A stretch of DNA of 53,309 nt, counting the filler, from Dirinaria sp. TL-2023a (Eukaryota): assembly GCA_051941275.1 (NCBI GenBank). It is 2 parts of 2 records of this genome, joined end to end, with 100 filler letters (N's around TTAATTAATTAA, not from the genome) between each part and the next. Parts side by side here need not be neighbours in the genome. Positions count along the whole stretch, not along the records: positions 26,729 to 53,309 come from JAVEBF010000160.1; 1 more part is not named here. One strand, 5' to 3'. The first letter of the stretch is position 1. The number at the start of each line of letters is the position of its first letter. The position numbers and the translations under genes are program-made. This document shows, one piece after another, positions 3,541-40,786 of this stretch. The notes beneath the pieces are model-generated. The model was not told the DNA's origin, did no database searches, and was given only the letters and a program-made list of their open reading frames with translations.

Positions 3541-5139
3541 ATGGCTACCTCTGGGCATAGTACCGGCTGCTATGCATGCAGGCGAATGAAAGTCAAAGTA
3601 CGTCGCATGGGTACCTGCACTGTATTCTCCCCTATTCTGAACATCTTCCACAGTGCGATGAAGGTCGGCCACATTGCATGCGCTGCCAGAAGGCGGGCAG
3701 ATCCTGCCCAGGCTATCGTGACATTCGTGATCTAATGTTCCGATCAATGAATGAGAAAGCGGAGCAAAGAAGCCGTCGCCAAAACTCCCATTCTACACGA
3801 TCGGGGCCAAAACCTAGACTATCTCCAAGTGGCTGTGATCAGGAGCGCAGGCCAGAAACGAGTGCTTCCAATGTCAACACCAGTCGCCATGATCGCCTTG
3901 CGGTTTCCTGCGCACCGGTGCCCAGTGACTGGAAACAGCAAGCCATTGTTGCTTTCTTCCACGACTATGTTATCTGCACAGATTCGCAAGGCCGCGGTGG
4001 GTATCTAGAGTTTCTGCCCGAGCTTTACCAGGAGCAATCCGGGAAACCTTACTTCGTGGAAGCTCTGAATGCAGTCTCGATGGCCAGCTTTGCGAATCGA
4101 GGCTCGATCGACCCTTTGAGATTCTGTGCGCGGCGGTCATATGGACGCGCATTATCCTTGGTCAATGCGATGTTGAGTGATGCAGGAGGTCAAGAAGGAT
4201 GAAGCACTTACTTCCATTCATCTCATGGCCATGTACGAGATCATTAGTGGAGATAAGACTAAATTGTGGGCGAGCCACCATGCCGGTCAAAGGGAGCTGA
4301 TACGTCTGCGTGGGCCCGCTCAATTCAAGTCACCAAGAGGTCGCTCGCTGTACCGCTTGATCCATATAATTCAACAATTCCAAGAGCTTTATTGCCGCCG
4401 TCAGCCCGTCTCAAAACCCGACGCAGCCTTCACCACATTCTATCCAATGCCACATGCAGCGAAACTTGCGGAACTGCTATCGGAAGTCTCAAAGCTAAAG
4501 AGGGGTGTTACCGGGCCCACAGAGCGCGGGAAGCATGAAATACATCCCGGCAAGTGGGACAAGGATGCCATGACCCTTGATCAAAGAATGCAAAGTTGGA
4601 GCGACAGAGCACCAGAAGCTTCATTATTCCGGTCAATTCCCTCTGAGGATTCGCGGCTGAGGCAAGAAAACGGATGTGTGGTGGAGTACCCTGAGCGCAT
4701 TTGGATTTTCAATAGCATCCAAATGGCTTGTGCGCGAAATGCGTTCACCTGTGGACGCATTCACCTCCTACAAGCCATGCTCGACTATCGTGCGAGACTC
4801 GCAACCGGAGCTTCGATTCTGTCAGCCTTGCCTTCCGAAACGAACCTTCGTCAGCGACTGCAGGAATTAGTTGGTGATATTTGCGCAACTGCTCCATTCC
4901 TGCTCGGTGAGGTCAATATTCAAGGCGCTCTCAACATCGACGCAAGGCGAAAAGCCGTAGGAGCATACTTGTTGCTGTGGCCACTACATGTTGCCGCAAC
5001 CGTTGCAGATCTCCCAGCTGCGCTGGAAACCTGGATTGTTGACCGCATGTTCTGCATCGGTCATGCTGTAGGAATAAAGCAAGCCTTAGTTCTAAAAAGT
5101 TATATTGGTAAAGGGATACCCGAAGATCAATTGCATTAG
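3541..5139 (+). CDS. Zn(II)2Cys6 fungal transcription factor with C-terminal fungal TF domain; apparent frameshift near 4180
   Basis: Exon 1 (3541-3597, GCYACRRMKVK), intron 3598-3653 and CDEGRPHCMRCQKAGRSCPGY form a complete binuclear cluster. Typical middle region (YGRALSLVNAMLSD / QEVKKDEALTSIHLMAMYE ... HHAG..ELIRLRG) and GAYLLLWPL ... IGIKQA-like C-terminus. The two halves lie in different frames. Confidence 0.8.
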
Positions 5140-22580: not shown

Positions 22581-23074
22581 ATGCCATGTGCGTCGAAGGA
22601 TTATTACCTCAGCACATCAGGAACTTCATCAGTAATGGATCCCATGTACCAGCTTCAGCTTCAAACTGACGTGACGTTCTAGTGTCGAAGGATATAGAAG
22701 CGATACGCACGGTGGTTCTGGCCTATCAAGATGCCATGAATGCCTCGAGCACCGACAGAGTAATGGCACTATATGCCCCTGACGGGGTTATCATGCCGCA
22801 GCACTCCCAAGCCAGAATCGGCGCCGATGCAGTCAGAGAGGCTTACGAAGACACCTTTTCCGCTATCGCGTTCCAAGTGAGATTCAATGTCGAGGAGATC
22901 GTTCCCACCAACGCTGATTGGGCCTTTGCACGCACGACATCGTTTGGAAGGACGAAGACTAAGGCAGGCGGTGGAGGGCCGGAAGCAAATCAAGAGCTGA
23001 TCGTGTTCCAGAAGATCGGTGGCGAATGGAAGATCTCACGGTTTTGCTTCTGCACCACCAATCCGGCACAGTAG
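22581..23074 (+). CDS. NTF2-like / SnoaL-like (DUF4440/YybH-type) protein
   Basis: ATG CCA T, intron 22588-22682 (GTGCGT...CTGAC...CTAG), then TG TCG AAG gives MPLSKDIEAIRTVVLAYQDAMNASSTDRVMALYAPDGVIMPQHS...WAFART...EANQELIVFQKIGGEWKISRFCF. Confidence 0.85.
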
Positions 23075-25676: not shown

Positions 25677-26212
25677 ATGCATCTCATTATCATCCCGTCA
25701 ACATCATCGCAAACGCTCCTTCCCCTTCTCATTCGCATTCTCTTCATCCAGTCCATCATCAACCGCGGGGTTGTGGCGAGTCCAATCCTGGCTAATATTG
25801 GTACCTAGCCTAGCGCCCCGAATTCCAATACTATATACTAGTCAAGCTCCTGTCACTGACTCGAGACATACTCGCATTCTCAGCACGCGCCGCCCAATCT
25901 CCTACAGAAACTGCGTCATCCCAGCGCGCAACAGCGACTCCACCTTCATCTTCCTCGTCGTCATCATCATCATCATCATCCTCAGATTACTGGTCATCCA
26001 CGCAAGGGATCTGCGCCATCGTCGGCGTCATCGTCGGATCCCTGCTCGCCGGCGGCGCATTATACTACACCGCGATAACCCATCTGGCGACGGAGAGAAG
26101 AGAGGCGAGGCGGGAGCAGGAGGAAAGGGAGCAGCGAGCCCGACAAGCCAAGAGGGACGCCAGGAATCCGCTAAAGGTCGTATTTTGGCGCAAGCTGTTC
26201 AGGAGGAAGTAA
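25677..26212 (+). CDS. 150-aa type I membrane-like protein (hydrophobic N-terminus, poly-Ser ectodomain, one TM helix, E/R-rich tail); not in the ORF track
   Basis: Exon 1 25677-25800, intron 25801-25883 (GTACCT...CACTGAC...CTCAG), exon 2 25884-26212. Splicing keeps frame: MHLIIIP...VVASPILANIARAAQSPTETASSQRATATPP(S)13DYWSSTQGICAIVGVIVGSLLAGGALYY...ERREARREQEEREQRARQAKRD...FRRK*. Confidence 0.7.
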
Positions 26213-26628
26213 ACATCTGTTCTCTATCTTCGTGGGAAGGGAAAGCGACCCGAGTTGTGCGGATGATGGGGATGATACTATGCATGAAATAGGAGATATA
26301 AAAGCAGGGTTGGGAGGGAGAATATTGAGGCATCTTCGGGAGCGTCTGTTCGTCTGGCTTTGGATGTAGGAGGAGGGAAATACTATAACCACCTTATTGT
26401 ATATCTGCCGTATGACATACCTATCCATTCTATACCGTATCTTCTTTATCGGACCCCACCACATCCACAAACAATGCAAGACAACAATAACCTTTTCATA
26501 CATGAAGCACTCAAAAAAAAAAAAAAGACTACAAACAAGTATCATAATCTCTGATCTATATCCAGACAAAAAATACTTATAAATACAACATTATACCCAA
26601 CTAGGTAATATACCCCTTCCCCCTACCC

Positions 26629-26728
26629 NNNNNNNNNNNNNNNNNNNNNNNNNNNNNNNNNNNNNNNNNNNNTTAATTAATTAANNNNNNNNNNNNNNNN
26701 NNNNNNNNNNNNNNNNNNNNNNNNNNNN
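26629..26728. other. Artificial assembly spacer: 44 N + TTAATTAATTAA + 44 N
   Basis: Exactly 100 nt and symmetric. The central 12-mer (26673-26684) puts stop codons in all six frames, typical of contig-joining linkers. Confidence 0.95.
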
Positions 26729-28308
26729 TTCCCGAATCAAAGAGCCTTTCAAAAAGTATCTAAAAGTAGTATTTACCTCTGGATATTATATTTACACTTT
26801 CGATCCATTTTCTTATGAATTTCTTAGGGAGTTTGTTAGTAGGTTGATTATAAGAAGAATATCTATACGTTTTTTAGATGTGGATTTGAGGTTTTGTATG
26901 AATTTTATTTTTAGAAAAATGGGGGGAGGGGATTTGATGTTGTCGGCGTTGGACAGGATAGTAATCCATATACGGCGTATTTCGAGTGAAAAGATCTTGA
27001 AAAAAAATAAAAAAAAAAACGCTTAATCAATATCGTAGCTCATTTCGAGTAATAGAATTCATGCTTTTATTCTATATCCTCAATTAAGTCATGAAGAAGA
27101 GAATATCTTTTTCTCTTCATGAGATATACGAAGAGATTGAACTAGTGAAAATCAACTTAAGACCTCCATATGACTTATCATCTTTCCCAGATTTCAAATT
27201 CAAGAAAATTAAAACCCCTTGCCAAAAGAAAATCTGGAGCATGATCAAATCTTGTTGAATTTGGTTGCTCCAAATGGGGTTCCATCACGTCTCTTTTTCA
27301 TACTTCTATGTGTGTGTAGGTTGGTTATTTACATACATGGCAACCTTTATGTGCGGAGGTCTATACCCCGATTGGGCCTAGTGCTCTCTCTGCCGGGTAT
27401 GCCCTATGCCGCTCACTTTCCAACAAATCTACTAATAAACCAAACGAACACCGAACACCATCTCTTCCTCTCACGACCGCAACATAACTTAAATATGTAG
27501 ACATATATACACGCGTATTTTCTCTCTACGTGAACAGCTACTAAAAAATGCTATCGATTAGAAGCTACCTATATCCAAAAATCTCGTGTCTAGATTCAAA
27601 TTTTTCCTTTTCCAGGATCACCGCTCAAAAAGCCAAAAAAAAAAGCCCCCCCCCAAAAAAAAGTAGTCTACCCGTCCTGAAAAACCCCTACACTTAACCC
27701 CTCTCCCTCACCCCTTCCCCAACCAGCTCCACCACACAACACCACACCGTCGCAAGGCCAGCTCCATTCTCAGATCTGAAATCAAGGCATGCATGAAGCC
27801 AATTTCCAAAACGAAGGTGGTTTTGCAGATTCTTCAGTTAGGTAGTACATGATGAGTTTTGATTCGTGGGCCAATTTTTTTTTTTTTTTTTGTTTTTTTT
27901 TTTCAAACAAGATGAATGTATTTTTTTATTTTAGAGGTTGGAAGTAGGGAGATTGAAGCAGAGGGACAATGCGGTTCGGGTGTTACTGCTGAGGGGAAGG
28001 GGGCTTGATTTATCTAAGTGGGTTGTGGAAATGATATTTTTTGGGGGGGGGCGTGATGAAACGATTTGACGTGGGTTATTACCTGCGATGGTCGCATGTT
28101 CAGAACGGGGGTTGTGGGAAGAAGGATGGAAGAAATTATTTGATTTAATGGAGTTGGTTGAAAGTTATATCGATTGTTATACGTGGCGAGACGAGCATTG
28201 AATTTTGGTTTTGCTTCGCGTTGTTTATCTGAGGATCTAAATTCCAGAAACCTACTTCTATCGATAATTTAGTCCAATCTTTTATTTTAAGGATCACCTA
28301 CAAAGCCT

Positions 28309-30265
28309 TCAGACTAGAGGATTAGTCGGCGGCTTGTATGCCTCAACCTGCTCCTTCAGCCTCTCATCGCCTAGCACTGTAGATTCGGATGAGTCGGTAT
28401 CTTGACGGTCTCCATGTGGCGAGGCAACGCTTTCCACTTCTGCATCGCTCGCAACGACTACCTCCGCGTCCTCTCTTTGCTTGAACGGCTGATCTGGCAC
28501 GAGCCATGCTGCAGTCGTCGTGAACGGGATTTGACTTACAAAGAAGACAAACGCCAGGATGAGCGTGTTTAGATACTTCCACTTGGTCGCGCTTGTGACG
28601 AGCGAGAATGTCGTGCCTACCGATTCAAAAGAACGCAACAGACCCGTGGTGCGAGCCAGGGTACCAACGCCATCGTCAAGTGTTCCCTAAGCGAAGACCG
28701 TGAGTATGCCAGCCAACACGCAGAGGGAGTCAAAAGATCGAGATAACTCACCATACTCCAGTAAAGATAGGTCTGGAGTGATTCGCTTGCAAAGCTCCAA
28801 AGGATGTATACAGCAAAGCCCCTCCCAAACCCGTGAGTCTTCCAGTCCAGGTGCGGATTTTTCCGCCCATACATCACCTGGTTTGTCGTCTGCCAGATCC
28901 ATAAGCTGAGAATTAGAGCGACAAGCCATAGCCATACGACTCTCGCTCGTGTACTGCGGCGCCACGGCTTGAAGTCTAGGGCTAGCCCGGTCAAGAGGTC
29001 ACCGCTAATGCCAGCGACAGCAGTAAGAAAACTCCCCAGAGCACGAGATCGTACTGAGAAATATGTGGCGAAATAGTTACCCTGATAGGTCGAACCCCAT
29101 TGACCGACAATGAAAACAGGGATAAGGAGTAAGATTCTGCGGGTTCGAACAAGACGCCAAACGGCTTTGCCTTCCACTAGCCAAGTGGTCCTCTTGATCC
29201 ACTCAACCTGGGTGCCATCATCTCGGATAACGTTTTGTGGCGGAGACAGGAGGAGTGCAATAGGGAGACCGGCACATTGAATCCCGATCAGGACAAGGTA
29301 GGTTGTGTAGCCAACCTTGCCGGTTTTGGAGTCTTCGACATTGAGCGCCAAATTAATTGCGCCGCCAATGAATTGACCCATACCGCGGATGCCGAGCCAT
29401 ATTGCAACTGCGCTTGAATTAGCTGGTGCATCGCGCTCGAACAGAATATCTAATCTGACCGTAGCGCCCCCGCTTATGATGTTCTGGATATCCTAAAACA
29501 ATTGCAGCTATTTCGTAATCAGCAACAGCTTATTTAGTGGATGTCAACTTGAAGACTGAAGATCGCCTAAGTGCAAGCTTCCATTCGAATCATTGCAGAC
29601 TTGTAAATTTACCAGAAAGGAGCATGATTAATTTCAGACTTGTACAATCACCAGATAGGAAATGATGGTATTGAAGTTACCTTCAGTAGCCCAGAGCATA
29701 CTTGCCGAGAAGCCGCAAGTGACAGCCCCTACAAGCACGTACCAGACTGTGCCATATCGATTGTTGGTATAGAGGCTCGAAGAGTAGAAGGGATAACCCA
29801 AAGTCCCAAGCTAATTTGTGAGCCCAATCATACCATAATTCATTCAATAACTACTTACCACCAAACCCCATTTCAGCCCGATCTTATTCGAAATTAGGCC
29901 ACCCAGGGTGCATCCAAAGATCATGATCCTGAGTGATCGTTGTTAGCTTTACTTACAGAGACAATGAGGAAACATTAATCATACCCAAAGGTGACGGCAT
30001 TTGCTGCATTCACCAAGTATGGCGACTCTTCTCCTCCTGCACCTAGGCCTACAATTCTGTATAAGTCATCCGTAGGCTTATCGCAAAAGAATCAAGCCAT
30101 ACTGTTCAGCGCGTTCCATATCCCGGGGTTCATGAAAGACACCAATCCGACTATGATGCATTGCAAAAGGGTGCCACGATAGAACCTATGTATCTTGTTC
30201 GCTGCAACAACAGATGCGCGCCTAATAGGCGCAGGATCTGAGCTTCCTGCTGTATCGAAGACCAT
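28309..30265 (-). CDS. UNC-93-like (DUF895) MFS-fold membrane transporter, multi-exon
   Basis: ATG 30265 MVFDTAG...FYRGTLLQCIIVGLVSFMNPGIWNALNS, LGAGGEESPYLVNAANAVTFG, GQFIGGAINLALN, LLLSPPQNVIRDDGT, YFSVRSRALGSF, GLLRSFESVGTTFS. Confidence 0.88.
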
Positions 30266-30417
30266 ATTGGCAGCTCAGCCACACAGTGAGATCCGAGTTC
30301 ACCGTCAAGTAGATCGTGTGGCCTTTGGTGGAGGGTTACCACAAGAAAGTCCTCTTCTGTAAAGCGCGGCGTCACAAAGTTGCAGGCATCTCAAATTTCC
30401 CAATGGTGATCAATCTA

Positions 30418-30427
30418 AGCACGCCAT
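30418..30427. promoter_or_regulatory. Candidate bZIP (CYS-3/MetR-like) site AGCACGCCAT
   Basis: The identical 10-mer recurs at 34700-34709 and as reverse complement at 37207-37216, each 100-155 bp upstream of a cluster gene ATG. Confidence 0.55.
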
Positions 30428-30992
30428 TCTCAACTATTCTGATTAAGTGGTTACTCAAATTTCGCTTTGGCTATCGCGGCATGCCATACTGAGATGGACA
30501 AACGCTAAATGGGTGGCGAAAGCACTGGACTTCGAGGATTTTGCGATAGTAGGAAGAAAAAGCCGTGGGGACATGCAGAAACTTAAGCTATGCATGGTTG
30601 TCATTCCCAGAAGCACAGCAGCTACCGCAGAATCACCCGCCTATATACGGTAGCCAAGGGTGAACCTTATCCTGGGTTTCTCCATAGCAATATCCACCTT
30701 CCGTAGACTTGTTGCTCTTCAGTACCAATTCCATTCACCTGCCTATTTAGATATCAGTAGCACAGGTTTCAGACAGTCCCGGCAATGCATGATAGGTGCC
30801 CGCTATAAATTAGTCCAAATTGCGAGATCTCTTGCGGGAAGGCGTAATCTTGGCGATTTGCATTGGTAGATTTGCGACCATTCGGACATAACCAATTGGA
30901 TTTTGGTATCTCCGGCGTTTATGGGCTGATGCAGGCAGCTTAAAGTAGTTGAGCTTGGTCAATAATGTCGAACAACAGTCACCTATATCATT

Positions 30993-32432
30993 ATGGCTTC
31001 CAACGCGCCAACTTCGCCCAAAAATCACGCTGAGAAAACACATATCTCGAACGGAAATGGACCGAAATCGAAGAAACGCATTATCATGCAAGCCTTTGTC
31101 ATGGGCTGTGGAGGACATATGTCTATCGGACAGTGGCGGCACCCAGAAGACCGGTCGTCCCAAGTCACAGACCTCGAACATTGGACCGACATTGCAAAAC
31201 TTCTTGAGCGTGGCAGATTCGATGCGTTGTTCCTGGCTGACGTCTTGGGTACATATGATGCATATGGTGGAAGCGCAGATAGCGCGGTCAAAACTGGTAC
31301 CCAATTCCCAGTGGTAGAGCCCCTTCTCCTCGTGCCGGCCATGGCAGCTGTAACGAAGCGTCTGGGTTTTGGTGTGACCGTATCCACGACCTACGAGCAC
31401 CCCTATCAACTGGCTCGGCGATTCAGCACCCTCGATCATCTCACGAAAGGGCGAGTTGCTTGGAATGTAGTGACTTCATATCTTGAGTCAGCAGCCAAAA
31501 ATATGGGCCTAGATACCCAGGTTCCTCATGACGAGCGGTATGAGATTGCAGAGGAGTTTATGGATGTGGTCTACGCTCTTTGGGAGTCGTCATGGCATCC
31601 AAACGCTTTGTTGTACGACAGAACATCATCCACAGTGACCCGGCCAGATCTTGTCCGGAAAATCGATCATGCCGGCAAATTTTTTACCGTCCCTGGACCT
31701 CACCTAGTAGCACCGTCGCCGCAGAGAACGCCTTTGATTTTTCAAGCAGGATCGAGCGGTACCGGATTGGCATTCGCGGCTAAACATGCCGAAGCAGTCT
31801 TTGTGTCTGGTCATTCACCCGAAGTGGTCCGCCCTCGAGCGGACGTCATTCGAGCAACGGCGAGGGAGAAGTTCGGAAGGGATCCTTCGGAAATCAAAAT
31901 CATTGTTAAGGTGACAACCATAATTGCAGATACTGATGAACTTGCTCAACGGAAATACGAGGAACATAAGAAATATGCCGACCACGATGGTGCACTGACG
32001 CTTATGGGAGGAAGTGGCATTGACCTCAGTCCCTTTCCTCATGACCAGGATCTGTCAAAGGAACCTATAGCTAAGAAGCTCATCGCTTCGTACCGATGGA
32101 AGCATCTTGAAGCACAACAGTGGACCACAGGTATGCTAGCAGAATTTGGTAGCATCGGAGGTAACGGCCCATTATTTGTTGGTTCACCATCAACGGTGGC
32201 CGACCATTTAGAGACGTGGTTGGATGAGGCTGACGTTGATGGATTCAATTTTGCCTATGTTATTTGGCCCGGAACGTACGAGGACATTGTCGAGCTGTTA
32301 GTCCCGGAGCTGGAACGACGCGGTAGGGTCTCGTCCTCGGAAGTACCAGAGTCCTTGACCCTGAGAGAACGCTTTGTTGGGAGGCAGCATGTCGGCAACG
32401 GCCATGCTGGAGAGAAGTACAGATGGACTTAA
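30993..32432 (+). CDS. Luciferase-like FMNH2-dependent monooxygenase, NtaA/SoxA/DszA (LadA-like) family
   Basis: Intronless 479-aa ORF with GQWRHPED, AKLLERGRFDALFLADVLG, YEHPYQLARRFSTLDHLTKGRVAWNVVTS, PSPQRTPLIFQAGSS and DVDGFN. Confidence 0.95.
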   Translation: MASNAPTSPKNHAEKTHISNGNGPKSKKRIIMQAFVMGCGGHMSIGQWRHPEDRSSQVTDLEHWTDIAKLLERGRFDALFLADVLGTYDAYGGSADSAVKTGTQFPVVEPLLLVPAMAAVTKRLGFGVTVSTTYEHPYQLARRFSTLDHLTKGRVAWNVVTSYLESAAKNMGLDTQVPHDERYEIAEEFMDVVYALWESSWHPNALLYDRTSSTVTRPDLVRKIDHAGKFFTVPGPHLVAPSPQRTPLIFQAGSSGTGLAFAAKHAEAVFVSGHSPEVVRPRADVIRATAREKFGRDPSEIKIIVKVTTIIADTDELAQRKYEEHKKYADHDGALTLMGGSGIDLSPFPHDQDLSKEPIAKKLIASYRWKHLEAQQWTTGMLAEFGSIGGNGPLFVGSPSTVADHLETWLDEADVDGFNFAYVIWPGTYEDIVELLVPELERRGRVSSSEVPESLTLRERFVGRQHVGNGHAGEKYRWT

Positions 32433-32923
32433 TAACCGTAAACCTCGGGGGATCATACCGGTTCCCTTTGGCTTCCTCGGTGCAAAGATACACAGTATTT
32501 CCGTCATATACTGCGAACCTGGCGTGGTCAAAAGATGACTGCTAGCCTGAGTCGCGTTCCTACCTTCTAGGGTAGTCAACCCTTGTCACACTACTTTCAG
32601 CAAGCTTTTTTTAATGAGCGTGTTGGTATTGAATCGAGTCTGCCAGTCGATAGGTGTGATAGAATACCATGGTAGCTGCCTGTGTGAGGCATGTGTTATG
32701 AGTGTCTGGATCAATCCATCAGACCTAATCTAACCCTAGTTTGATTATTAGCTTCACTTTCGTTCCAAATCGAACGATGAGGAATTTCTTCTCTAGTCTA
32801 AGAGACTAATCAAGCAGTCAAAGTTAGAAATGGTCATTGACCGCGGATCCAACGTTGGAATTTATCCAAGAACCTCAATCTAGGTCTGCAAGCACACTTG
32901 CTCCTTTCCCGAGAATTGATCCT

Positions 32924-34598
32924 TTACTTCTGACTCTCTGCTTCAACATATTTGGCGCCCAACCGCTCTCGTAAAATTTTCAATCTATCTTCGTTTGCAG
33001 CATGCCAAGCAGCGGTGTGGCCCTCGACACGCTGGCCACCAAACCTCTCGGCGTCCCTATTGACCCACTCCACGAGGCTGTCCACGTATTGCACCTCCTC
33101 CCCCCTTAACGAATGAAAAGCCCTTCCACTGCCTTTTCTTCGCACCCTGGCCCTGTACTCGTCCCTCATTTCCTGTTGAGATGGTAGTTCTGCCTTTCCG
33201 CTCAGAACCGCCGCAAGCGCGACGGCTTGAAACTCAAATAGGGAGAAAGTGGCCGTGTAGTACGGCGCCCCGATGAAAGAGAGGGTAGGGTCAGGAATGT
33301 AGAAAATGTCTTTGTGCAAATTGTGGCGCTGAGTGCCGTCAGTGACGAGGACCGTGTCGGATGCGTCCTCCGGTGACGTATCATCTTCGTGGTGATTGGG
33401 GAGAAATGGCAGCGAAATATGATACCCTGTGCAGAGTATGACGCGATGGGTTTTGGTGAGCACACGCCCGTTTTCCAAATGGATATCGAGGGGAATAGGA
33501 GCCGAGGGATGGAGTGATTCGTCTGCGTTGGTAGATGGCGGCGGCTGGAATGACCTGACGTTGTCGACTCGCTGAGCATTCTCCGGAAGCAATTTTGACG
33601 GTAGGTCGAATGCTCCTCCCCGTGAAGTTTGGTAAACGGTCTCAGCCACAGGTCCTAGATCCTTTGCAATATCTGTTGATGAAACTCCAGCGCCAATAAG
33701 CAGAACGTTCTGTCAAAGACATTATCAGGATAAATCCAGTCGGTTGCGAGTATCAAATCCTTACTTGATCAACGAATGAGTCTGGTTTCCTATAACTTTT
33801 TGAATGTTGGATCCGAGCGGGCCACTTATTCTTCCACTGAGCAAGTCCTGGAAAATCAGGAATGCGGCAGGTATGGTAGTGACCGGACGCAATCACGACA
33901 GCGTCAAACGACTTGTGTCTGTTTAGTTGTACGCACATATGTCATCGGCGATAGAGTTACCCATAACTGTTCAGACACCTTGCAATTACTCGAAAGGGTT
34001 GAGGTTCTCACTTCCCATTTGCTGCCGGCTTTCTCGATTCTCTCGACCTTCGTGTTGTACTTGGTATTTCTATGCACGCCAGCTTTTTGGGATGTATCGC
34101 GGATGTATTCATTCAATATCCGATGACTGACAAAATCAGGTGTTCCTTGTGGCCACGTGTTGATCTGCAGTTTTAAAAGTCTCGTGGATACATTGTTATT
34201 TAGACTGGCGTAGCAGGGCCTTATCTACTGATCAATCATCAATGGCATTATGGAGGTATATCAAGAATTTCCAACCCTGGTGGAGCATGTCTGATCATTG
34301 ATTGGGAATCGAGAATATCGGAATCCACGCCATAAAGTTCACTCCTATCTGCGCACGAGGGATTGACAGCGGGATAAGCAGGATCTAGAGCGGTTCGCTC
34401 ATCGTAGAGCCTTCCAATGTTAGAAATTGTCTGAAAAGCGGTATAGTGTGCTGACCAGATGCCGCCTGGCGCGCTGGACCTTTCGAAGACCGTATAATCG
34501 ACACCGGCCTTCTCTAAGTGTGCTCCGGTAACGACACCACTAATGCCTGCTCCGATGACGGCAACTTTCATTGGGGGCATATCGCCATGATCTGACAT
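32924..34598 (-). CDS. Flavin-containing monooxygenase (FMO; thiol-specific/dimethylaniline monooxygenase-like), multi-exon
   Basis: VAVIGAGISG (FAD), FERSSAPGGIW, FDAVVIASGHY, QHSKSYR (FMO-identifying motif), VLLIGAGVSSTDIA (NADPH), VILCTGY, NLHKDIFYIPDPTLSF. Confidence 0.93.
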
Positions 34599-34699
34599 TC
34601 GAGTCCCTGCGAGTCAGCCGTAATATATATCCACTTGCCAGCTTTAGCTACATGAGGGGAATAAGTCCGAGGCTCCCTATCTGGCTGCATTAGCGTGAC

Positions 34700-34721
34700 A
34701 GCACGCCATGTATCACGCAAT
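34700..34721. promoter_or_regulatory. Tandem candidate bZIP sites AGCACGCCAT and ATCACGCAAT upstream of the FMO
   Basis: First site is shared with 30418 and 37207; second is the exact reverse complement of ATTGCGTGAT at 37926-37935 in the TauD promoter. Confidence 0.55.
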
Positions 34722-34996
34722 CCGATAGCACGCACACCAGACCCGTCCAAAAGATGCCATGGTCATTGCCTGAAGCCGGCTTTGACTTCCGGCAAGGGCA
34801 CCATGTTCAGCAGCCGGCAGCAACTTACTGGTGACTTTTGTCAAATGAACACACAAGGATTGAGAGTCAGCTATCAAAGGGATGTAGAAAGAGTACCAGC
34901 CCGTCATGCGAAGAAAAGCATTCACGAATCGTAAGCTGGCCTAGTTTCGTGCTCTTACTGTCTCAGAAATTTTTCTACAGCGCTGGAAGGCAATGC

Positions 34997-37071
34997 CTAA
35001 GCCTTGATATCCGTTGCTACTGTAATGTGCTCGAGGTTGTGGTCGCTATCGTCGCTTGAGTTTGAACCCTGGCGCTCCTCCCCATCGATGGATCTGTCAA
35101 TAAGATGCGTTAGCGAACAGCGCAGCTGTTGGACTTTACCAGAAAATATACCTCCTGCGCTGCTTCTCATGCAAGACCTTAGTGCCAATACCTACGAGAA
35201 TCAATGCTATAGATAGACCTGTTATGGTAATAAACCCCTTGCGGTACTGTGGTGCATCGACCTGTTGCCAAACAAGCAGCGGTAGCCAAGCTTATAGCAC
35301 GTAAGCCATTTCTTTCATAGACGCGATCACGATCACTCATTCCTCGTTGTCTCCGGCACAGATCTCATGAGCCCATCTATGATTCTTCGCATTAGCCGCA
35401 GTTGCACTTAAACGTATTCACTTTTGGTGGTGAAAACGAACGCCATGCAAAGGCCCGAAAGACCGTAGCCACCTCCAGAAAATATATAACAGAACCAGCG
35501 CCAGCCTTCCGGAATACGCCATATGGCAAGCGACGTGTAACAGATAATGTTGATAATCTGATAATACAGGCGTCAGTTACTGTCACCGCGCGTAAAGCAG
35601 CGGCGCAATCCTGCGGGAAACTCATGAACATGGATCGGTTTAGCTCACAGCTCCAAAGATTATTGGCGGCAGCCGATCACCATTGAGAATGGAATCTGAT
35701 GCCCAAGCGTAGGAGAGAGTAGTCACAATTTGGACTGCATATGTCGTTGTCGGATAGTTATTAATCTGAGCTATCGTATATTTCGGATGTTTGGAGGCTT
35801 TCAAGTATTGAGCAAATACTGGTGCTGCACCTGCAGCACCATTGTTGAATAAACTGCTTGTGTCAGTCACATGGCGATTATGTTTTGGGGTTGACCCACA
35901 CATAGAGTGCTGTCAGCATATAGATGTGCCAGGAAGTTAGGATTTTCTTGACTTTGGCCTTCGTGTAGGGTGCCCTTGGCTTGCGGTCCTCTAGCGTCAT
36001 TCTCTTGACCGCGAAAATTCGTTCCTACTTGCAATCTTAGTCTGACTTTCCATGATGAAGTCGTAGACTTCTTACCTGATCTGTCAAGTACCAAGCACGG
36101 CTGGTCTCGGGGACGTCAGGAATGAAAAAGAAACCTGCAACGGCTATGGGTAAGGAGATAATGCCATCGACTAGAAACAACCTGAATCACACCTTAGTCG
36201 TGGCTCTACTGCCTGAAGATTTAGAATTAGTACCATTGCCAACCAGCAAAGCCATTTCTGCCACTTAGATGGTAGACAGAAGCCATCAAATAACCCGAGC
36301 ACATGGTTGCTACTGCTGCACTGGTATGGAAGATACATGACCGCTTGGCGAGCTCATCTTTTCTATACCAGGAGCCTATAACGTATTGCATTCCGGGATA
36401 GAATGAGCCCTCTGCGAGACCTGAGTCTCGGTTAGAAGAGGTAGATATCTGGGCACACAAGGATCAAGTATACCAACAAAGAATCGGATGATGTACACTT
36501 GACGTGCCGAAGTGCAACGGCTGATACTGAAGGTAAGTACAGTCCATACAATCTGATTTGTGTCAGAGTATCTGTCATATACACTCAGCTCTCGACTGAC
36601 CTCATTCGTCGGGATCCAAAGTGAGGGCCGAATGCGAGTTAGGACTACATTACTTGGAATTTGACCAAGGACGTAGCCTATGGTCCAGCAAGTTTGCATA
36701 TAATTGAGTTCATTATGGTAAAGCGAGAGTTGTTCTTTCCTTTGCACGAATCAGCATTTACAAACCAGTTCCAGGACCGGGACCGCAGACATTCCGGATA
36801 CAAAGGCATTATTCATATTGGCTTGATCGAGGTATTTGATAAAATACCCTGAGCGTGTTAACAGGTCAGAATAATCACAAATTATCTCGCAATACTTACC
36901 CAAAGACGCGAATGTCAGTAGCGCAAAGTCAAGTTTGAACAAGAAGCGACGCTCTTCTTGTGACTTGTCCAAAGTGTCCCAGATGTAGCTTTGCCACTTC
37001 CGCTTAACCCTTGTATGAATCAAGTCATCTGCTCTCCCCAATCTTTGCGTAACATCGTCACCTGGTTGCAT
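34997..37071 (-). CDS. MFS transporter, allantoate permease / anion:cation symporter family (SEO1/FEN2/Liz1-like), multi-exon
   Basis: WQSYIWDTLDKSQEERRFLFKLD, KYLDQANMNNAFVSGM, WTIGYVLGQIPSN, FYPGMQYVIGSWYRKDELAKRSCIF, GWQWLFLVDGIISLP, WQQVDAPQYRKGF. Confidence 0.92.
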
Positions 37072-37206
37072 GGTGCGTAGACAGGCAGTTACTAGTAAGT
37101 GATATCGAGTGAGCGAGGCTCGTGGAGAAAAAGGATTTCTGGTGCAATCAGGATACTAATAACCAGAGATCTCATCGCCATAGAACTTGCGTTCTGCCAA
37201 GTATCT

Positions 37207-37216
37207 ATGGCGTGCT
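37207..37216. promoter_or_regulatory. Candidate bZIP site ATGGCGTGCT upstream of the SEO1-like MFS
   Basis: Reverse complement of the 10-mer at 30418 and 34700. Confidence 0.55.
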
Positions 37217-37700
37217 ACAATCGCTGTAGATATAGCTGCTTAGAAAGCTAGATATGCATGTAGCCCAGCCTAGCACGGTTTGTGCGCATCGAGACAAATC
37301 ACGAGATGAGGGCCAGAGAAAGATAGGGATCTTCGGCATCTCGGCTGGTGCTGGCCAGTAAAAATATCAATTATTTTCAGAGGACCCAGCCCTCACACAA
37401 AATTGCAAAAGTGGAAAACAGTTCCTAATCTAGAGTGACCTGGCCAAATGGCTCTGAAGGAGGCGCATCTCCGGCCACTGATGCTAAAATTCATGCGAAC
37501 ATTAACTATGATAAAGTGAAGCTCATTGGAGGCTTGAAGACTTTCGACCCCGTTGCCCTTCGAACGGAATTTCATTTCGGCTAGGCTTCAAAGACTAATT
37601 GCCTAGTCAAGGCATCGACTCATAAGCAGAGGAGTTCATCGAGGTAACATTTGGAAGGCAATGGAAAAATTTGTACTTGGGAACTAGCAAGGATCATGCG

Positions 37701-37710
37701 ATGGTATCAT
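37701..37710. promoter_or_regulatory. ATGGTATCAT, exact match to the Neurospora CYS-3 consensus ATGRYRYCAT
   Basis: Lies in the divergent MFS/TauD promoter region. Confidence 0.5.
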
Positions 37711-37925
37711 CGTCTCCTCGGTAACACAGCAGACCTGAACGAGCTGTGTCCAAATGTCACACCTAAAAAGTGTTTCACTGGCACGATTGGCTGCCTATCC
37801 AAGAGTAACTTTGAGAAGATAAGACGATAAGAGGCCGAAGTCTCGGGAGGAGCATTGAAAAGGCGCCACTGCATGTTAGGGAAGGGGAGAGTCCAGCATT
37901 GTGTGTAAGGGTGTAAGCAATCCGT

Positions 37926-37935
37926 ATTGCGTGAT
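37926..37935. promoter_or_regulatory. Candidate bZIP site ATTGCGTGAT upstream of TauD
   Basis: Reverse complement occurs at 34712-34721 in the FMO promoter; about 155 bp upstream of the TauD ATG. Confidence 0.5.
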
Positions 37936-38090
37936 TGACCCCGCAATCTAAACCGAACATGAGTTGAAAGCATAGTACGGGCGAAGGACTCGTACAATAG
38001 CCCTGTGAAGATAGCCCTGTGAAGAAGAAAACCATCGACACAAACTTCTACTAACATATAAGAGACTTCGATTTACTGAGTTGTGGAGCA

Positions 38091-39331
38091 ATGGCTCCAT
38101 CTGCCATTGACCCAGTCTTCGTCGATGTGGTACAGCCTAAGACGGATACCTTGAAACTTCCTTTGGAGTCCAGGAAGAGGCTTGAAAAGGCAGGTATAGA
38201 CTTATCCAATGGGTATCCATATCGCCCCGCCAGGCCACTGTATCTGCAAGACGTCGAAAAGCTTCGTAGTGGATTCCGTGAGCATAGAGATCCAGGCGCT
38301 CGAGCCGATCGAGGCAAGTCGAGTTTGTTTGCTGCAGCGGAGAAAGTCATCGACCTGACTGCTCATATTGGGACGGAGGTTGTGGGGTTGCAGCTGAAGG
38401 ACTTGACCGCTCAGCAAAAGGACGAGCTAGGCTTGCTCATTGCCGAGCGCAGCGTGGTTTTTTTCCGCGATCAAGACATTTCGCCGCAACAACAGAGAGA
38501 GCTCGGAGAGTGGTATGGCGAAATTGAGGTCCATGTAGGTTGCGAATTTCTGAATTTCCCGTGCGTGGTTGACAGATGGGCATAAAGCCACAAGTGCCAC
38601 AAGTCCCTGGAGTCCCCGGTGTGACTGTTATCTGGCCAGAGCTTCAAGCGACCGAAGCCAAAGTGACCAATTTCCGAAACCCCGGAGGCGCGGCCAGATG
38701 GCATACAGATCTGGTGCACGAGAAACAGCCGGCAGGGGTGACTCACTTACATAACGACACAGTACCTGCTATCGGTGGCGATACGCTGTGGGCAAGCGGA
38801 TACGCCGCCTACGAGAAGCTATCACCCGATTTCCGCAAGATAATTGACGGCAAGCAAGCGGTGTATCGCTCAGCTCATCCGTATCTAGATCGCAATGATC
38901 CCACTGCAGGACCCAAGTACTTGGAGCGTGTTCATCCGTTGGTGAGGGTTCACCCAGCCACAGGATGGAAGGCACTTTGGGTCAACCGCGCAATGACTGT
39001 TCGCATCGTGGGTCTTGACAAAGCCGAGAGCGACGTCATTCTAGGATACCTTTACGATGTTTTCGAGAAGAATGTCGATATTCAGGTTCGTTTCCGCTGG
39101 ACTCCCCGGACAAGTGCGTTATGGGATAACAGGTGAGCAATCATCTCCGTATCCGTACTGGATGTAGCAATGACGTGTTGCAGGATCACCATCCACAATG
39201 CGAGCTGGGACTATGAAGGCTCCACGCCAAGGCACGGGACAAGAGTGACAGCACTGGCAGAAGTTCCTTTCTTTGATGAGCATGCTCCCACAAGGCGGCA
39301 AGCCTTGGGCATTGCTGGCAGTGATGATTGA
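38091..39331 (+). CDS. TauD/TfdA family Fe(II)/2-oxoglutarate-dependent sulfonate dioxygenase (JLP1-like), 3 exons
   Basis: DLTAHIGTEVVGLQL, LLIAERSVVFFRDQ, WHTDLVHE (HxD), GGDTLWASGY, HPLVRVHPATGWKALWVN, WDNR|ITIHNA, RHGTRVT; stop at 39329-39331. Confidence 0.95.
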
Positions 39332-39782
39332 CAAGCAGTAACCGCAGTCTAAGGCTTTCGTTGCTTTTCATCCAAGTACCTGTGACTTTGGGTTAATCAA
39401 ACAAACACTAAGGTAGACAGCGAACACAAATGTCAGGGAGCACGGAATCAAATGTGCTTGTTCCTAGCCAGTAGTGAGAAGGTGTCGAGGTATTTTGCTC
39501 TCCCATGCCAAGCAACCAATTCGATCCAAACGAGGGCTCAACCCTCGCTTTTTGGGCTTAGCCATTTCCCGCCTAGCGCAGTCGCACTCATCCCTCGCAA
39601 ATCTTGACTCACCACTCACCAGTGCACAACTCCTAAGATCGATTTCCATCTAGCTATCAAAGCTTCTGTCTCTACCTACTCGCATCGATCGCACTTCAAC
39701 TGAATGTTAGGATAAATCTGCCCTTAGAGAACCAACAGGAACTTCAGCAAAAAGTAACAGCGATAAAGCGAGAACTGCGACA

Positions 39783-40270
39783 ATGGTGGGTGGCGACGCC
39801 GTTCTGCGGCTTGTCGGCATCAAGCGGTGACTGACGAAAAGGATACAGGTTTTGGCAGTCGATCTTCTCAACCCGGCGCCTGCGGCCGAGGCCCGCAAGC
39901 ACAAGCTGAAGGTACGTTTGATGCGATGTCTGCGAGCAGAATCCAGGTTTCATCAAAGCTAGTGGGGTGCGGGTTGTCGTGTGCCTCACCATAATTACTC
40001 CCTCCAAGGCGCACATTCACACTTAATGGCCCAGACACATATAACAATGCCGCATTCTTTCGGATGCTGATATGGTGCTTTATGTAGATGCTTGTGCCCG
40101 CACCCCGATCCTTCTTCATGGACGTCAAATGCCCCGGCTGCTTCACAATCACGACCGTCTTCTCCCATGCGCAAACTGTCGTCATCTGCGGAGGGTGCAG
40201 TACGGTGCTATGCCAGCCCACAGGAGGCAAGGCGCGGTTGACAGAAGGGTGCTCATTTCGGAGGAAGTAG
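39783..40270 (+). CDS. RPS27: 40S ribosomal protein eS27 (S27)
   Basis: Exons 39783-39785 (ATG), 39849-39911 and 40088-40270 give [82 protein letters not shown]. Confidence 0.98.
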
Positions 40271-40786
40271 GGAGATTTGGTACTGGTGGTAAAGAAGAGA
40301 GAAGGACAGGACGAGGGATGTTGGAAGGTAGAGGTCGAGATGCTGTATGTTAGCATGAAGTATGGTATAGAACCAAAGAGGAGTGGATTTGCATGCCCTT
40401 TAAGTCTCTCGCGCAATTTCGCTGGTTATATTGTAGGTTGACTGGTAAGATGTCTGTATGGCATATGCCAGGATATTTGTTGGTGGACGGACATGTTTCA
40501 TTGCTTCGCGCCTGATACTTGTACATGGGCTTAAACGTCTAACATATCCTGGGCTCTTACACTTCTTTTCGCTTTCTAGTCTGAAACATCGTACAAACGC
40601 ATAGATGCTGAGCCGTTGTCTTACTTTAAAATGAAACATATCACGAGCTCATATGCGAAGACATTAGGTCACATTTTACTCGATGATTCTTACGAACCCT
40701 TGATACAGCAAAAGGGTGAGCACCACGCCTTCCATACGCGCTCAATGGCCCGCTCAACAGAAGTCAAAAGTATTCCTCGAATGTTG

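Follow-up and report, generated by a model that had tools for sequence, protein, structure and literature searches.

Gene content and organization of the Dirinaria locus

Five contiguous genes, with nothing else between them, occupy positions 28309-39331 of the 53,309-bp stretch of DNA from Dirinaria sp. TL-2023a analysed here (hereafter the window), and their products raise the question of whether three oxygenases and two transporters constitute a single organosulfur pathway, a looser scavenging system, or a unit unconnected with sulfur. In order, the genes encode a predicted UNC-93/DUF895 MFS transporter (G1, - strand), a luciferase-like (LLM) monooxygenase (G2, +), a yeast-type flavin-containing monooxygenase (FMO; G3, -), a Dal5/ACS-family MFS transporter (G4, -) and a TauD dioxygenase (G5, +). 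The coordinates and strands of the original prediction are retained, as is its observation that no unrelated gene intervenes. We estimate a probability of about 0.7 that this cluster serves the sulfur-limitation-responsive scavenging of alternative, organic sulfur by means of two fungal modules located side by side.

Open reading frames are preserved in four of the five genes (G1, G2, G3 and G5). Spliced transcripts of G3, G4 and G5 are present in the lichen metatranscriptome of a close relative, where 14 introns of these three genes are seen as joints in RNA contigs 90-97% alike to the Dirinaria sequence, and G1 and G2 have no coverage among these contigs. Among the 95 flanking ORF pieces of at least 90 amino acids, neither a flavin reductase or other sulfur gene nor any polyketide synthase (PKS), NRPS, terpene synthase or nitrogen-catabolic family was found.

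The UNC-93-like transporter and the luciferase-like monooxygenase

G1 (28309..30265, - strand) comprises seven exons and about 509 codons, with introns at 30049-30102, 29929-29984, 29811-29858, about 29529-29680 (boundary uncertain), 29408-29459 and 28687-28751, and its spliced model contains no internal stops. Its own exon pieces gave no Pfam match; the UNC-93-like identity proposed earlier is borne out through the Xylogone homologue P0125, which is colinear with G1 along residues 22-448 of 473 (tblastn) and contains PF05978 (UNC-93; 50.1 bits, cut-off 22.9) as well as PF07690. One UNC-93-like relative bears the label 'Notoamide biosynthesis cluster protein'.

The divergently transcribed G2 (30993..32432, + strand) is a single-exon gene encoding a 479 amino acid predicted FMNH2-dependent monooxygenase, which matches PF00296 (1e-48) and the NtaA/DmoA family TIGR03860 (495.3 bits; cut-off 279.7). 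It shares 81% amino acid identity with Xylogone P0002, and the next named relatives reach at most 54%. The solved relatives of G2 are DmoA (6ak1; 449 bits), LadA (3b9n; 417 bits), HcbA1 (6lr1; 322 bits) and DszA (5tlc; 254 bits). The earlier description of G2 as DszA-like is therefore loose, as DszA is only the fourth-best solved structure; judged by these matches, G2 is an NtaA/DmoA-family member with DmoA and LadA as its nearest solved relatives. The former is the Hyphomicrobium dimethyl-sulfide monooxygenase and the latter an enzyme of Geobacillus. Both belong, like G2, to the TIGR03860 subfamily, with matches spanning the whole length, yet DmoA acts on dimethyl sulfide and LadA on long-chain alkanes, such that subfamily membership leaves the substrate of G2 unfixed. 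An alkane hydroxylase (LadA) and a hexachlorobenzene dehalogenase (HcbA1) are included among the solved relatives. The reductase that G2 needs is absent from the cluster, a point missed in the original prediction.

The FMO, Dal5-family transporter and TauD-family dioxygenase

G3 (32924..34598, - strand) encodes a predicted 489 amino acid class B FMO of the yeast type in five exons, separated by introns at 34411-34455, 34220-34275, 33912-33960 (or 33919-33967) and 33710-33764. The spliced model is open and is covered by spliced RNA contigs of the relative. The presence of FMO-like (34.9 bits; cut-off 22) and NAD_binding_8 domains supports the FMO assignment made previously, and the closest solved structure is the S. 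pombe FMO 2gv8 (9.4e-26). One G3 exon shows a weak match to trimethylamine monooxygenase.

At the other end of the cluster, G5 (38091..39331, + strand) encodes a putative 378 amino acid Fe(II)/2-oxoglutarate dioxygenase of the TauD/TfdA family (Jlp1-like) in three exons, and both introns (38535-38587 and 39133-39183) are seen in the RNA contigs of the relative. PF02668 (TauD) is matched by exon 1 (37.3 bits) and by exon 2 (129.8 bits), the latter confirming the TauD identity. Among solved structures, G5 is matched best by E. coli TauD (1gqw), with which the WHTD and GGDTLW motifs align; the distal His and two Arg residues align with a bacterial TauD-family protein. Non-sulfur enzymes, such as phenoxypropionate and 2,4-D dioxygenases, also belong to the TauD family.

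G4 (34997..37071, - strand; 11 exons, 502 codons) shares 59.5-63.5% identity with the homologues P0375, P0517, P0518 and P0520, and its relatives include Trichoderma and Botrytis proteins, some of which carry the source name 'pantothenate transporter liz1'. The gene was originally described as SEO1-like, but the names that the nearest relatives bear at source are of the Liz1/pantothenate-transporter type. The best NCBIfam match of P0375 is TIGR00893 (2A0114), at 135 bits under the cut-off of 395, and the predicted transporter is classed here as Dal5/ACS-family (TC 2.A.1.14-like). Nine of its intron joints are found in the RNA contigs of the relative, or ten where the divergent last intron is counted. 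The best spliced model is fully open except for exactly two internal stops, a TGA at 35339-35337 (- strand; codon 409) and a TAA at 35294-35292 (- strand; codon 424), both read directly from the sequence. These lie in the conserved stretch DNEE*VIVIASMKEMAYVL*AWLP, where the aligned homologues have Arg in 6/6 cases at codon 409 and Gln in 5/6 at codon 424, and an RNA contig of the relative is colinear across the region (225 letters, 12 differences, no gaps). The interruption was overlooked in the original prediction. Two in-frame nonsense codons at conserved Arg and Gln positions suggest that G4 is probably a pseudogene in this assembly, and at least one part of the cluster would then not be functional there.

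The two nonsense codons could indicate that the locus is a decaying or fortuitous juxtaposition, in which members of expanded families (TauD, Dal5-type MFS, FMO) have become neighbours by chance and form a functionless unit in a lichen-associated fungus. TauD families number 11-42 members per genome in Sordariomycetes, according to the portion of PMC7441637 available, and the conservation seen in relatives is that of sub-pairs of the five-gene arrangement. However, four of the five frames are open, G4 is open bar its two stops and is spliced and expressed in the relative, the sub-pairs recur across other fungal classes, and an identical 10-mer in three promoters (see below) is hard to credit to chance. 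As such, a decaying or fortuitous juxtaposition appears highly improbable.

A shared promoter element

Exactly three copies of the 10-mer AGCACGCCAT are found in the 53,309 bp of the window, one in each promoter region of the cluster; these regions total 2,148 bp, or 4% of the window. The first copy (30418..30427, + strand) precedes the G1 ATG by 153 bp and that of G2 by 566 bp. The second (34700-34709, + strand; feature 34700..34722) lies 102 bp upstream of the G3 ATG and is accompanied by ATCACGCAATC (34712-34722, + strand), which has one mismatch to ATBRCGCCATC. The third (37207..37216, - strand) precedes the G4 ATG by 136 bp and that of G5 by 875 bp. The upstream distances to the start codons of G1, G3 and G4 are thus 102-153 bp. 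A 10-mer common to all three regions occurred in 1/2000 dinucleotide shuffles. The flanks of the copies (+/-25 nt) are unrelated, so the copies do not stem from a duplicated segment.

The DAP-seq motif of the N. crassa regulator CYS-3 is given as ATBRCGCCATC in the accessible text of PMC8550094. Its core, BRCGCCAT, is fitted by CACGCCAT within AGCACGCCAT, and the element differs from the Neurospora 11-mer at two positions, 2 (G for T) and 11. Across the whole window the core is not enriched (12 matches against 9.25 expected), with three of the 12 in the promoters. The G4/G5 intergenic region furthermore contains ATGGTATCAT (37701..37710, + strand), an exact match to the older CYS3 consensus ATGRYRYCAT that is weak alone; three exact matches occur in the window against 1.02 expected, and at least three in 8/100 shuffles. 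The occurrence of the same 10-bp element with a CYS-3/MetR bZIP core in all three promoters suggests that sulfur scarcity probably activates the five genes jointly. We infer regulation by a CYS-3 orthologue and sulfur-containing substrates for the enzymes.

The promoter evidence also bears on a role in non-sulfur catabolism or detoxification, in which the FMO and the NtaA-family enzyme would oxidise amines, alkanes or xenobiotics, the TauD-type enzyme would act on a non-sulfur substrate, and the MFS proteins would import a vitamin-like acid (pantothenate/allantoate type) or export products. Such a role draws on the relatedness of G2 to LadA and HcbA1, the pantothenate transporter names given by the sources to G4 relatives, the notoamide label of the UNC-93-like relative and the resemblance of the G3 exon to trimethylamine monooxygenase. 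These relatives' names are, however, automatic transfers, and N. crassa genes of the same names answer specifically to sulfur starvation and CYS-3 (PMC8550094). The fit of the promoter element to the CYS-3 core and the lack of PKS, NRPS, terpene synthase and nitrogen-catabolic families in the 95 flanking ORF pieces further argue against a non-sulfur function, which we regard as improbable.

Two modules or one pathway

The original prediction arranged the five genes in one linear route of import, S-oxidation, C-S cleavage and sulfite release. In such a dedicated pathway, a single organosulfur compound would be imported, the FMO would oxidise this sulfide to a sulfoxide or sulfone, the LLM enzyme would cleave the latter to a sulfinate or sulfonate, and TauD would release sulfite from that product. 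The order of chemistry fits the fungal scheme drawn by bacterial analogy by Linder 2018 (PMC5857272), and the promoter element is common to all five genes. Against it, biochemical proof of any of the steps is lacking for fungi according to the same review, and the modules occur apart in other fungi. G1 and G2 homologues are adjacent in two Leotiomycetes, namely Xylogone (KAH8810702.1 and KAH8810701.1, respectively) and Scytalidium (B7463_g12624 and g12625, on one 11,605-bp contig). The adjacency of G3 and G4 is conserved in the Dothideomycete Viridothelium virens, where a merged 1030-aa model (P0529) aligns with G3 at aa 9-483 and with G4 at aa 488-978. The N. crassa TauD/MFS/FMO block is separate from the DUF895 and LLM genes, and in this fungus an FMO is paired with a Dal5-family MFS in two places, one of which has no TauD alongside. 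The presence of two different transporters likewise speaks against a single route, which seems unlikely. A description as two recurring modules side by side, G1-G2 and G3-G4-G5, suits the cluster better, and we consider scavenging in parallel, or partly in series, more likely than one dedicated pathway.

In the scavenging system proposed here, the first module would pair a DUF895/UNC-93-like MFS importer with a divergently transcribed NtaA/DmoA-family FMNH2-dependent monooxygenase, which would break a C-S bond oxidatively in a sulfide, sulfone or sulfonate, drawing reduced FMN from a reductase whose gene lies elsewhere. In the second module, the yeast-type FMO (G3) would S-oxygenate thiols or thioethers, and G4, cut short by its two nonsense codons in this assembly, would represent a Dal5/ACS-family importer. 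The TauD/Jlp1-type dioxygenase (G5) would hydroxylate the carbon beside a sulfonate (or sulfate ester), freeing sulfite (or sulfate) for assimilation. A scavenging role for the predicted organosulfur genes is thus upheld by the CYS-3-core promoters and by the N. crassa blocks and Candida regulon described below, but their arrangement in one linear pathway is not.

Comparison with known sulfur-starvation systems

Two blocks of consecutively numbered N. crassa genes, which sulfur starvation raises roughly 90- to 1,300-fold in expression and whose promoters CYS-3 binds in DAP-seq (PMC8550094), resemble parts of the Dirinaria cluster, with families matched by annotation names, not by sequence. NCU05883-05888 holds the G1-G4 families. 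Within it, NCU05884 ('MFS transporter Seo1'), NCU05885 ('flavin-binding monooxygenase'), NCU05886 ('DUF895 domain membrane protein'), NCU05887 ('oxidoreductase') and NCU05888 ('dibenzothiophene desulfurization enzyme A') are bound and regulated by CYS-3, with log2 fold changes of 6.7-10.3 on sulfur starvation, or about 100- to 1,300-fold (PMC8550094, supplementary files 2 and 3). The LLM-type xenobiotic compound monooxygenase NCU05883 likewise has a DAP-seq peak for CYS-3 but carries the mark 'not confirmed by differential expression', and the neighbouring NCU05889 is flat at about 150 FPKM (PMC8550094). Gene pairs in this block have common DAP-seq peaks, as expected of divergent pairs, and their adjacency is deduced from locus numbers and peaks. 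Unlike the Dirinaria cluster, the block lacks TauD and includes an extra 'oxidoreductase', possibly a reductase partner, and a second LLM gene.

The second block comprises the suc-2 taurine dioxygenase (NCU07819), the mfs-29 'pantothenate transporter' (NCU07820) and the dam-2 'dimethylaniline monooxygenase' (NCU07821), the same three families in the order G5-G4-G3. CYS-3 binds and regulates each of these genes, and on either side NCU07818 and NCU07822 are flat; induction of NCU07820 is not significant in the wild-type comparison (q 0.19) but is significant against the cys-3 mutant (PMC8550094). A single CYS-3 DAP-seq peak is common to NCU07819 and NCU07820 and lies 770 and 388 bp, respectively, from the start codon (PMC8550094), an arrangement like that of the divergent G5 and G4, which a 1,019-bp spacer separates. 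The NCU07820 transporter is presumably intact, in contrast to the twice-interrupted G4.

On the most likely reading, the five genes of Dirinaria form a sulfur-starvation cluster whose kind can already be seen in the published data on Neurospora. The earlier view that no characterised fungal pathway was recognisable must be revised accordingly, as the co-regulation of such blocks is contained in these data (PMC8550094), although physical clustering is not discussed in the available main text, where the two occurrences of 'cluster' are unrelated. Conversely, the suggestion that the locus points to a substrate class for the orphan UNC-93-like transporter gains experimental backing, as the DUF895 protein gene NCU05886 is itself a CYS-3 target (PMC8550094).

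In the available text on Candida, sulfur starvation induces the JLP (TauD), SOX (LLM, PF00296), FMO and SEO/SOA genes, several of which have a promoter bound by Met32 (PMC13170222), and the PF00296, PF02668 and Dal5-family genes of C. parapsilosis are Met4-dependent (PMC11502921). Growth on taurine and other sulfonates depends on Jlp12, and glutathione is taken up through Seo13 (PMC13170222; PMC11502921), while single fmo and sox mutants of C. albicans show no growth defect on the sulfonates tested (PMC13170222). Four of the five Dirinaria families are represented in this regulon, with SEO1, SEO13 and SOA1 as Dal5-family members, and an UNC-93-like member is not mentioned in the accessible portions of these sources. 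The regulators are of the Met4/Met32 rather than the CYS-3/MetR bZIP type, and the genes are described as a regulon rather than a physical cluster.

Bacterial sulfur-starvation operons share the same enzyme logic, combining an LLM FMNH2 monooxygenase, TauD and a dedicated importer. Operon types of this kind include tauABCD, ssuEADCB, sfn/msu and dszABC. They differ in using DszC/SfnB-type acyl-CoA-dehydrogenase (ACAD)-like oxygenases in place of a class B FMO, and usually encode a flavin reductase, as exemplified by the FMN_red and Flavin_Reduct genes of locus L008. Of the eight bacterial loci fetched, four were examined. One of these (L002) encodes an ABC transporter, an LLM enzyme and two ACAD-like proteins, and another (L006) has genes for an ACAD-like protein, an LLM enzyme sharing 44% identity with G2, a TonB receptor, an MFS transporter and TauD in a row.

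Organisation of the gene cluster and its flanks

Exactly five genes lie between positions 28309 and 39331 of the window, which is fungal in character with short spliceosomal introns. As the original prediction had it, nothing else is found in this span. The first gene (G1; 28309-30265, minus strand; seven exons, ~509 codons, open frame) encodes a predicted UNC-93/DUF895 MFS transporter, and is followed by a single-exon gene for an NtaA/DmoA-family luciferase-like FMNH2 monooxygenase (LLM) (G2; 30993-32432, plus strand; 479 codons). These two genes, here termed module A, are followed by module B, comprising genes for a flavin-containing monooxygenase (FMO) (G3; 32924-34598, minus strand; five exons, 489 codons, open frame), a putative Dal5/ACS-type MFS transporter (G4; 34997-37071, minus strand; 11 exons, 502 codons) and a TauD-family dioxygenase (G5; 38091-39331, plus strand; three exons, 378 codons). 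A Pfam family could be assigned to six of the sixteen submitted ORF pieces, while ten were without a family. We consider it likely, with a probability of roughly 0.7, that the cluster is a sulfur-limitation-responsive scavenging system built of two conserved modules and carrying a CYS-3/MetR-type promoter element.

The left border of the cluster (26000-28300) is AT-rich (GC 0.39) and gene-poor, includes two 44-base N runs (26629-26672 and 26685-26728), and could represent a degraded repeat. At the right border, a ribosomal protein S27 gene (39700-40360) with a zinc-ribbon motif (CPGC...CGGC) and introns at 39785-39847 and 39910-40085 shows the highest RNA-contig depth figures of the runs, and is followed by a gene for an LRR protein. 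No sulfur, flavin-reductase or secondary-metabolite core families were identified on the flanks, where 95 ORF pieces of at least 90 aa were scanned. The locus was also considered as a secondary-metabolite cluster, a reading which was rejected on the absence of a core synthase family from these 95 pieces. A Zn2Cys6 transcription factor (Zn_clus and Fungal_trans_2 domains) and a SnoaL/DUF4440-like gene, located upstream at 3561-5136 and 22670-23071, respectively, have no evident link to the cluster.

Transcript evidence was drawn from four RNA runs, all of one lichen-metagenome sample and sharing 7-10% of words. The assembled contigs are 90-97% like the window, with 0/34 placed pieces reaching at least 99%, and thus derive from a relative. 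They cover G3, G4, G5 and the ribosomal protein S27 gene, and their canonical intron joints agree with the gene models, while the region of G1 and G2 (28309-32432) is without contig cover, which is uninformative either way. One contig of the relative (36899-37791) extends from exon 1 of G4 upstream to 37791, and the TauD contigs begin at or before 37917. This indicates either a very long 5′ leader of G4 or another transcript in the spacer between G4 and G5, of which only ~125 bp would then be untranscribed.

Predicted functions of the encoded proteins

The G1 product is colinear with a Xylogone sp. protein (P0125; 78% amino acid identity) over residues 22-448 of 473. The exon pieces of G1 were too short and yielded no Pfam match of their own, while P0125 contains the UNC-93 domain (PF05978; Bitscore: 50.1; cut-off: 22.9) as well as PF07690, and the putative UNC-93/DUF895 membership of G1 is by proxy through this protein.

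The G2 product contains the LLM domain (PF00296; e-value: 1e-48) and matches the NtaA/DmoA family of FMN-dependent monooxygenases along model positions 2-421 of 422 (TIGR03860; Bitscore: 495.3; cut-off: 279.7). It had been labelled DszA-like, a name that does not fit its ranking among solved relatives, where DmoA is first (Bitscore: 449.3), followed by LadA (417), HcbA1 (321.6) and, in fourth place, DszA (5tlc; 253.8). An enzyme of this type needs a flavin reductase partner, and neither FMN_red nor Flavin_Reduct was matched in any of the ORF pieces scanned in the window, 16 plus the 95 from the flanks. A G2 homolog of the chytrid Fimicolochytrium jonesii (P0054; 834 aa) combines PF00296 with a flavin reductase-like domain (PF01613), so that one natural fusion protein unites the monooxygenase and the reductase lacking from the present cluster.

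The G3 product shows the FMO-like domain (PF00743; Bitscore: 34.9; cut-off: 22) and, in exon 1, NAD_binding_8 (Bitscore: 33.3). The motifs VIGAGISG, HSKSYR and LLIGAGVSS are legible in the spliced model, which carries both the N-terminal FAD motif (GxGxxG) and the second dinucleotide motif of class B FMOs, and its best solved relative is the FMO of S. pombe (e-value: 9.4e-26).

In G5, the TauD domain (PF02668; cut-off: 27) was matched by exon 2 (Bitscore: 129.8) and exon 1 (Bitscore: 37.3). The best solved relative is E. coli TauD, with WHTD aligned to WHTD and GGDTLW conserved, while the distal histidine (ITIHNA) and RHGTR have TQHYA and RELRR as aligned counterparts in a TauD-family protein from bacteria. 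We take these residues to be the His-X-Asp...His iron triad and the C-terminal arginines. Exon 3 alone produced no meaningful match to solved structures in the PDB, and exon 2 alone scored 116 bits against the NCBIfam taurine dioxygenase model (NF007104), the cut-off of which (313) applies to a whole protein. By its domain and residues, G5 is assigned to the TauD/TfdA Fe(II)/2-oxoglutarate dioxygenases, with a predicted Jlp1/TauD-type release of sulfite from sulfonates.

The Dal5/ACS family to which the G4 product appears to be related (TC 2.A.1.14) takes in Seo1, Soa1 and Liz1/Fen2, and the SEO1-like label of the original prediction is a tentative one within it. The best NCBIfam match of a G4 homolog (P0375; 59.5% amino acid identity) is TIGR00893 '2A0114', with a score of 135 bits that is below the cut-off of 395. 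The nearest full-length relatives (60-64% amino acid identity) are named 'pantothenate transporter liz1' or 'ACS family' in their source records. An ESM Atlas search with one G4 exon recovered generic MFS clusters only, a representative search with the N-terminus chiefly recovered exon-sized fragments, and the ten such fragments looked up added nothing further on gene adjacency. Catabolism of compounds other than organosulfur would find some backing in these automatic 'pantothenate transporter' names and in the presence of LadA and HcbA1 among the relatives of G2, of which DmoA is the highest-scoring. We regard a non-sulfur role as improbable and favour sulfur scavenging.

The interrupted reading frame of G4

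The best of 1536 splice-site combinations for G4 retains two internal stops within its 502 codons, TGA at 35339-35337 (codon 409) and TAA at 35294-35292 (codon 424), and the frame is thus interrupted. Both fall inside a conserved stretch, DNEE*VIVIASMKEMAYVL*AWLP, in which the aligned homologs have arginine at the first stop (6/6) and glutamine at the second (5/6), and C-to-T changes in CGA and CAA would yield the two stops. Skipping of the stops by alternative splicing was rejected, as they sit in a conserved coding stretch that is kept in the RNA of the relative. With the remainder of the frame open, the picture is that of recent inactivation, of polymorphism among strains or of an error in the assembly. 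That the five genes lie together by mere chance, or are decaying, would be in keeping with the broken G4; set beside the otherwise open frame, we consider this highly improbable.

A promoter element shared by both modules

The promoter regions at 30266-30992, 34599-35000 and 37072-38090, which together make up 4% of the window, were compared by k-mers. A single 10-mer, AGCACGCCAT, is common to all three, and its three exact copies in the 53,309 bp fall one in each region, at 153, 102 and 136 bp upstream of the start codons of G1, G3 and G4, respectively. Of 2000 shuffles of these regions that preserved dinucleotides, one gave a shared 10-mer, and the flanks of the copies are unrelated, so that the element is no duplicated segment. 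The 10-mer includes the 8-bp core BRCGCCAT of the DAP-seq consensus ATBRCGCCATC of N. crassa CYS-3, as given in the part of the source available (PMC8550094), and the full 11-mer fits with two mismatches. Furthermore, a second site with one mismatch to this consensus is located two bases beyond the 10-mer in the G3 promoter. We infer from these matches that a CYS-3 orthologue would bind AGCACGCCAT.

The core itself is not enriched in the window overall (12 occurrences against 9.25 expected), with three of the twelve in the promoters, and matches to the 11-mer with up to two mismatches (78 against 63.8 expected) are uninformative. The older CYS3 consensus, ATGRYRYCAT, occurs exactly three times against 1.02 expected, a count reached in 8/100 shuffles and not convincing alone, and 28 times with one mismatch (21.1 expected). 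One of its exact matches, a weak indication, is located in the spacer between G4 and G5.

Conservation and possible origin of the modules

In Xylogone sp., the accession numbers of the G2 and G1 homologs directly follow one another (KAH8810701.1 and KAH8810702.1), as do their locus tags (B7463_g12624 and g12625) on one 11,605-bp contig of Scytalidium lignicola. A 16,712-bp ENA contig appears to carry both homologs, judged from equal contig sizes. For module B, a 1030 aa protein of Viridothelium virens (P0529), named 'pantothenate transporter', contains FMO and MFS Pfam domains, with residues 9-483 aligning to G3 and 488-978 to G4, and so places an FMO and a Dal5-type MFS transporter adjacent or fused in a Dothideomycete. 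About 20 of 120 FMO-only JGI metagenome fragments among the matches listed (P0255-P0355) are named 'ACS family pantothenate transporter-like MFS transporter', plausibly through annotation transfer from merged FMO and MFS models such as P0529.

The eight loci found via G2 are all bacterial-looking (GC 0.55-0.72; 38-50% identity to G2), and a sulfur-scavenging-like context was observed in two of the four examined. One, from a bacterial metagenome (L006; 8614-16079), contains consecutive genes for an ACAD-like protein (DszC/SfnB-type), an LLM, a TonB-dependent receptor, an MFS transporter and TauD, with a LysR regulator adjoining, and is a compact sulfur-scavenging-type locus.

The G1 and G2 proteins share 78-81% identity with their counterparts in Xylogone and Scytalidium (Leotiomycetes), while the next named relatives share 63% (G1) and 54% (G2). 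G1 is 97-100% identical to a lichen-MAG protein that bears the label Dirinaria sp. (Lecanoromycetes), on a contig equal in size to that with the G2 of the window, and the nearest named relatives of G3 are lichen fungi, at 59-63% only. The identity pattern of the G1-G2 pair suggests horizontal transfer, retention in only a few scattered lineages or mis-binning of the contig.

Proposed role and comparison with known sulfur regulons

Sulfur in soil and bark is mostly organic, and the window presents a compact, promoter-linked candidate set for its release. The encoded enzymes probably act on organosulfur compounds in parallel or partly in series. The original prediction placed them in a strictly linear pathway of import, S-oxidation, C-S cleavage and sulfite release, an arrangement that is conceivable and unsupported by the results, and which we judge unlikely. 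It is also doubtful, if worth setting out, that the trio G3-G4-G5 represents a dedicated, undescribed eukaryotic route and G1-G2 a second one, the two being controlled by one CYS-3-type switch and together completing a system that leads from reduced organosulfur to sulfite. The trio would then import a reduced aminothiol or thioether (e.g. cysteamine, hypotaurine, or a pantetheine- or glutathione-derived compound), which stepwise S-oxygenation by the FMO would turn into a sulfonate and TauD would cleave to sulfite, while the DUF895-LLM pair would serve sulfides or sulfones. On this reading, the G1-G2 pair may also have passed horizontally between a fungus of lichens and the Leotiomycetes.

Sulfur scavenging by the two modules is consistent with the sulfur-starvation responses of other fungi. 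According to the portion of PMC13170222 available, the JLPs (TauD-type), SOX1/2 (LLM-type), five FMOs and SEO1/SEO13/SOA1 of C. albicans are upregulated under sulfur starvation, with Met32 bound at several of their promoters. Growth on sulfonates needs Jlp12 and glutathione is imported by Seo13, and single fmo and sox mutants grow normally on taurine, the sole source tested for them. Likewise, PF00296, PF02668 and Dal5-family genes of C. parapsilosis are described as Met4-dependent in the part of PMC11502921 available. In the available text of the 2018 review by Linder (PMC5857272), fungal enzymes that free organic sulfur are termed largely uncharacterised, the FMNH2 monooxygenases among them, and Jlp1 was then the only verified desulfonating enzyme.

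The closest parallels are found in N. crassa (PMC8550094 supplement). The genes NCU05884 ('MFS transporter Seo1'), NCU05885 ('flavin-binding monooxygenase'), NCU05886 ('DUF895 domain membrane protein'), NCU05887 ('oxidoreductase') and NCU05888 ('dibenzothiophene desulfurization enzyme A') each carry the flag 'CYS-3 bound and regulated' and respond to sulfur starvation with log2 fold changes of 6.7-10.3. For NCU05883 ('xenobiotic compound monooxygenase'), which has a CYS-3 peak, expression rises from <0.5 to 141-376 FPKM, and NCU05889 is flat. Similarly, NCU07819 (taurine dioxygenase), NCU07820 ('pantothenate transporter') and NCU07821 ('dimethylaniline monooxygenase') are bound and regulated by CYS-3, the first two with a single common peak, while NCU07818 and NCU07822 are flat. 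Induction by sulfur limitation, demonstrated only for these same-named N. crassa genes, is by analogy predicted for the present cluster. Physical clustering is absent from the main text of PMC8550094 as far as available, where the two uses of 'cluster' are unrelated. Our literature searches found NCU05886 or NCU05888 named in this CYS-3 paper only, and nothing relevant linking DUF895 with sulfur.

The original prediction had also not recognised this as a characterised fungal pathway. This stands for the biochemistry and the physical modules as such, for which the literature searches found no describing paper, and does not stand for the regulon concept and comparable blocks, which are in published data; the finding consequently refines knowledge and opens no new field. 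A sulfur role gains backing from it both for the orphan DUF895/UNC-93-like transporters and for FMOs of fungi, and N. crassa knock-outs and sulfur-starvation data exist for both.

By family names and gene order, G1-G2 and G3-G4-G5 match two Neurospora blocks that have sharp borders and are under CYS-3 control, a likeness of annotation names and gene order in which adjacency in Neurospora is read from locus numbers and shared peaks. The trio G3-G4-G5 matches NCU07821-07819, while for module A an 'oxidoreductase' accompanies the DszA-like gene in Neurospora, whereas the window has no flavin reductase. Modules that are apart in Neurospora can thus sit together, which points to DUF895+LLM and FMO+Dal5-type MFS+TauD as recurring units.
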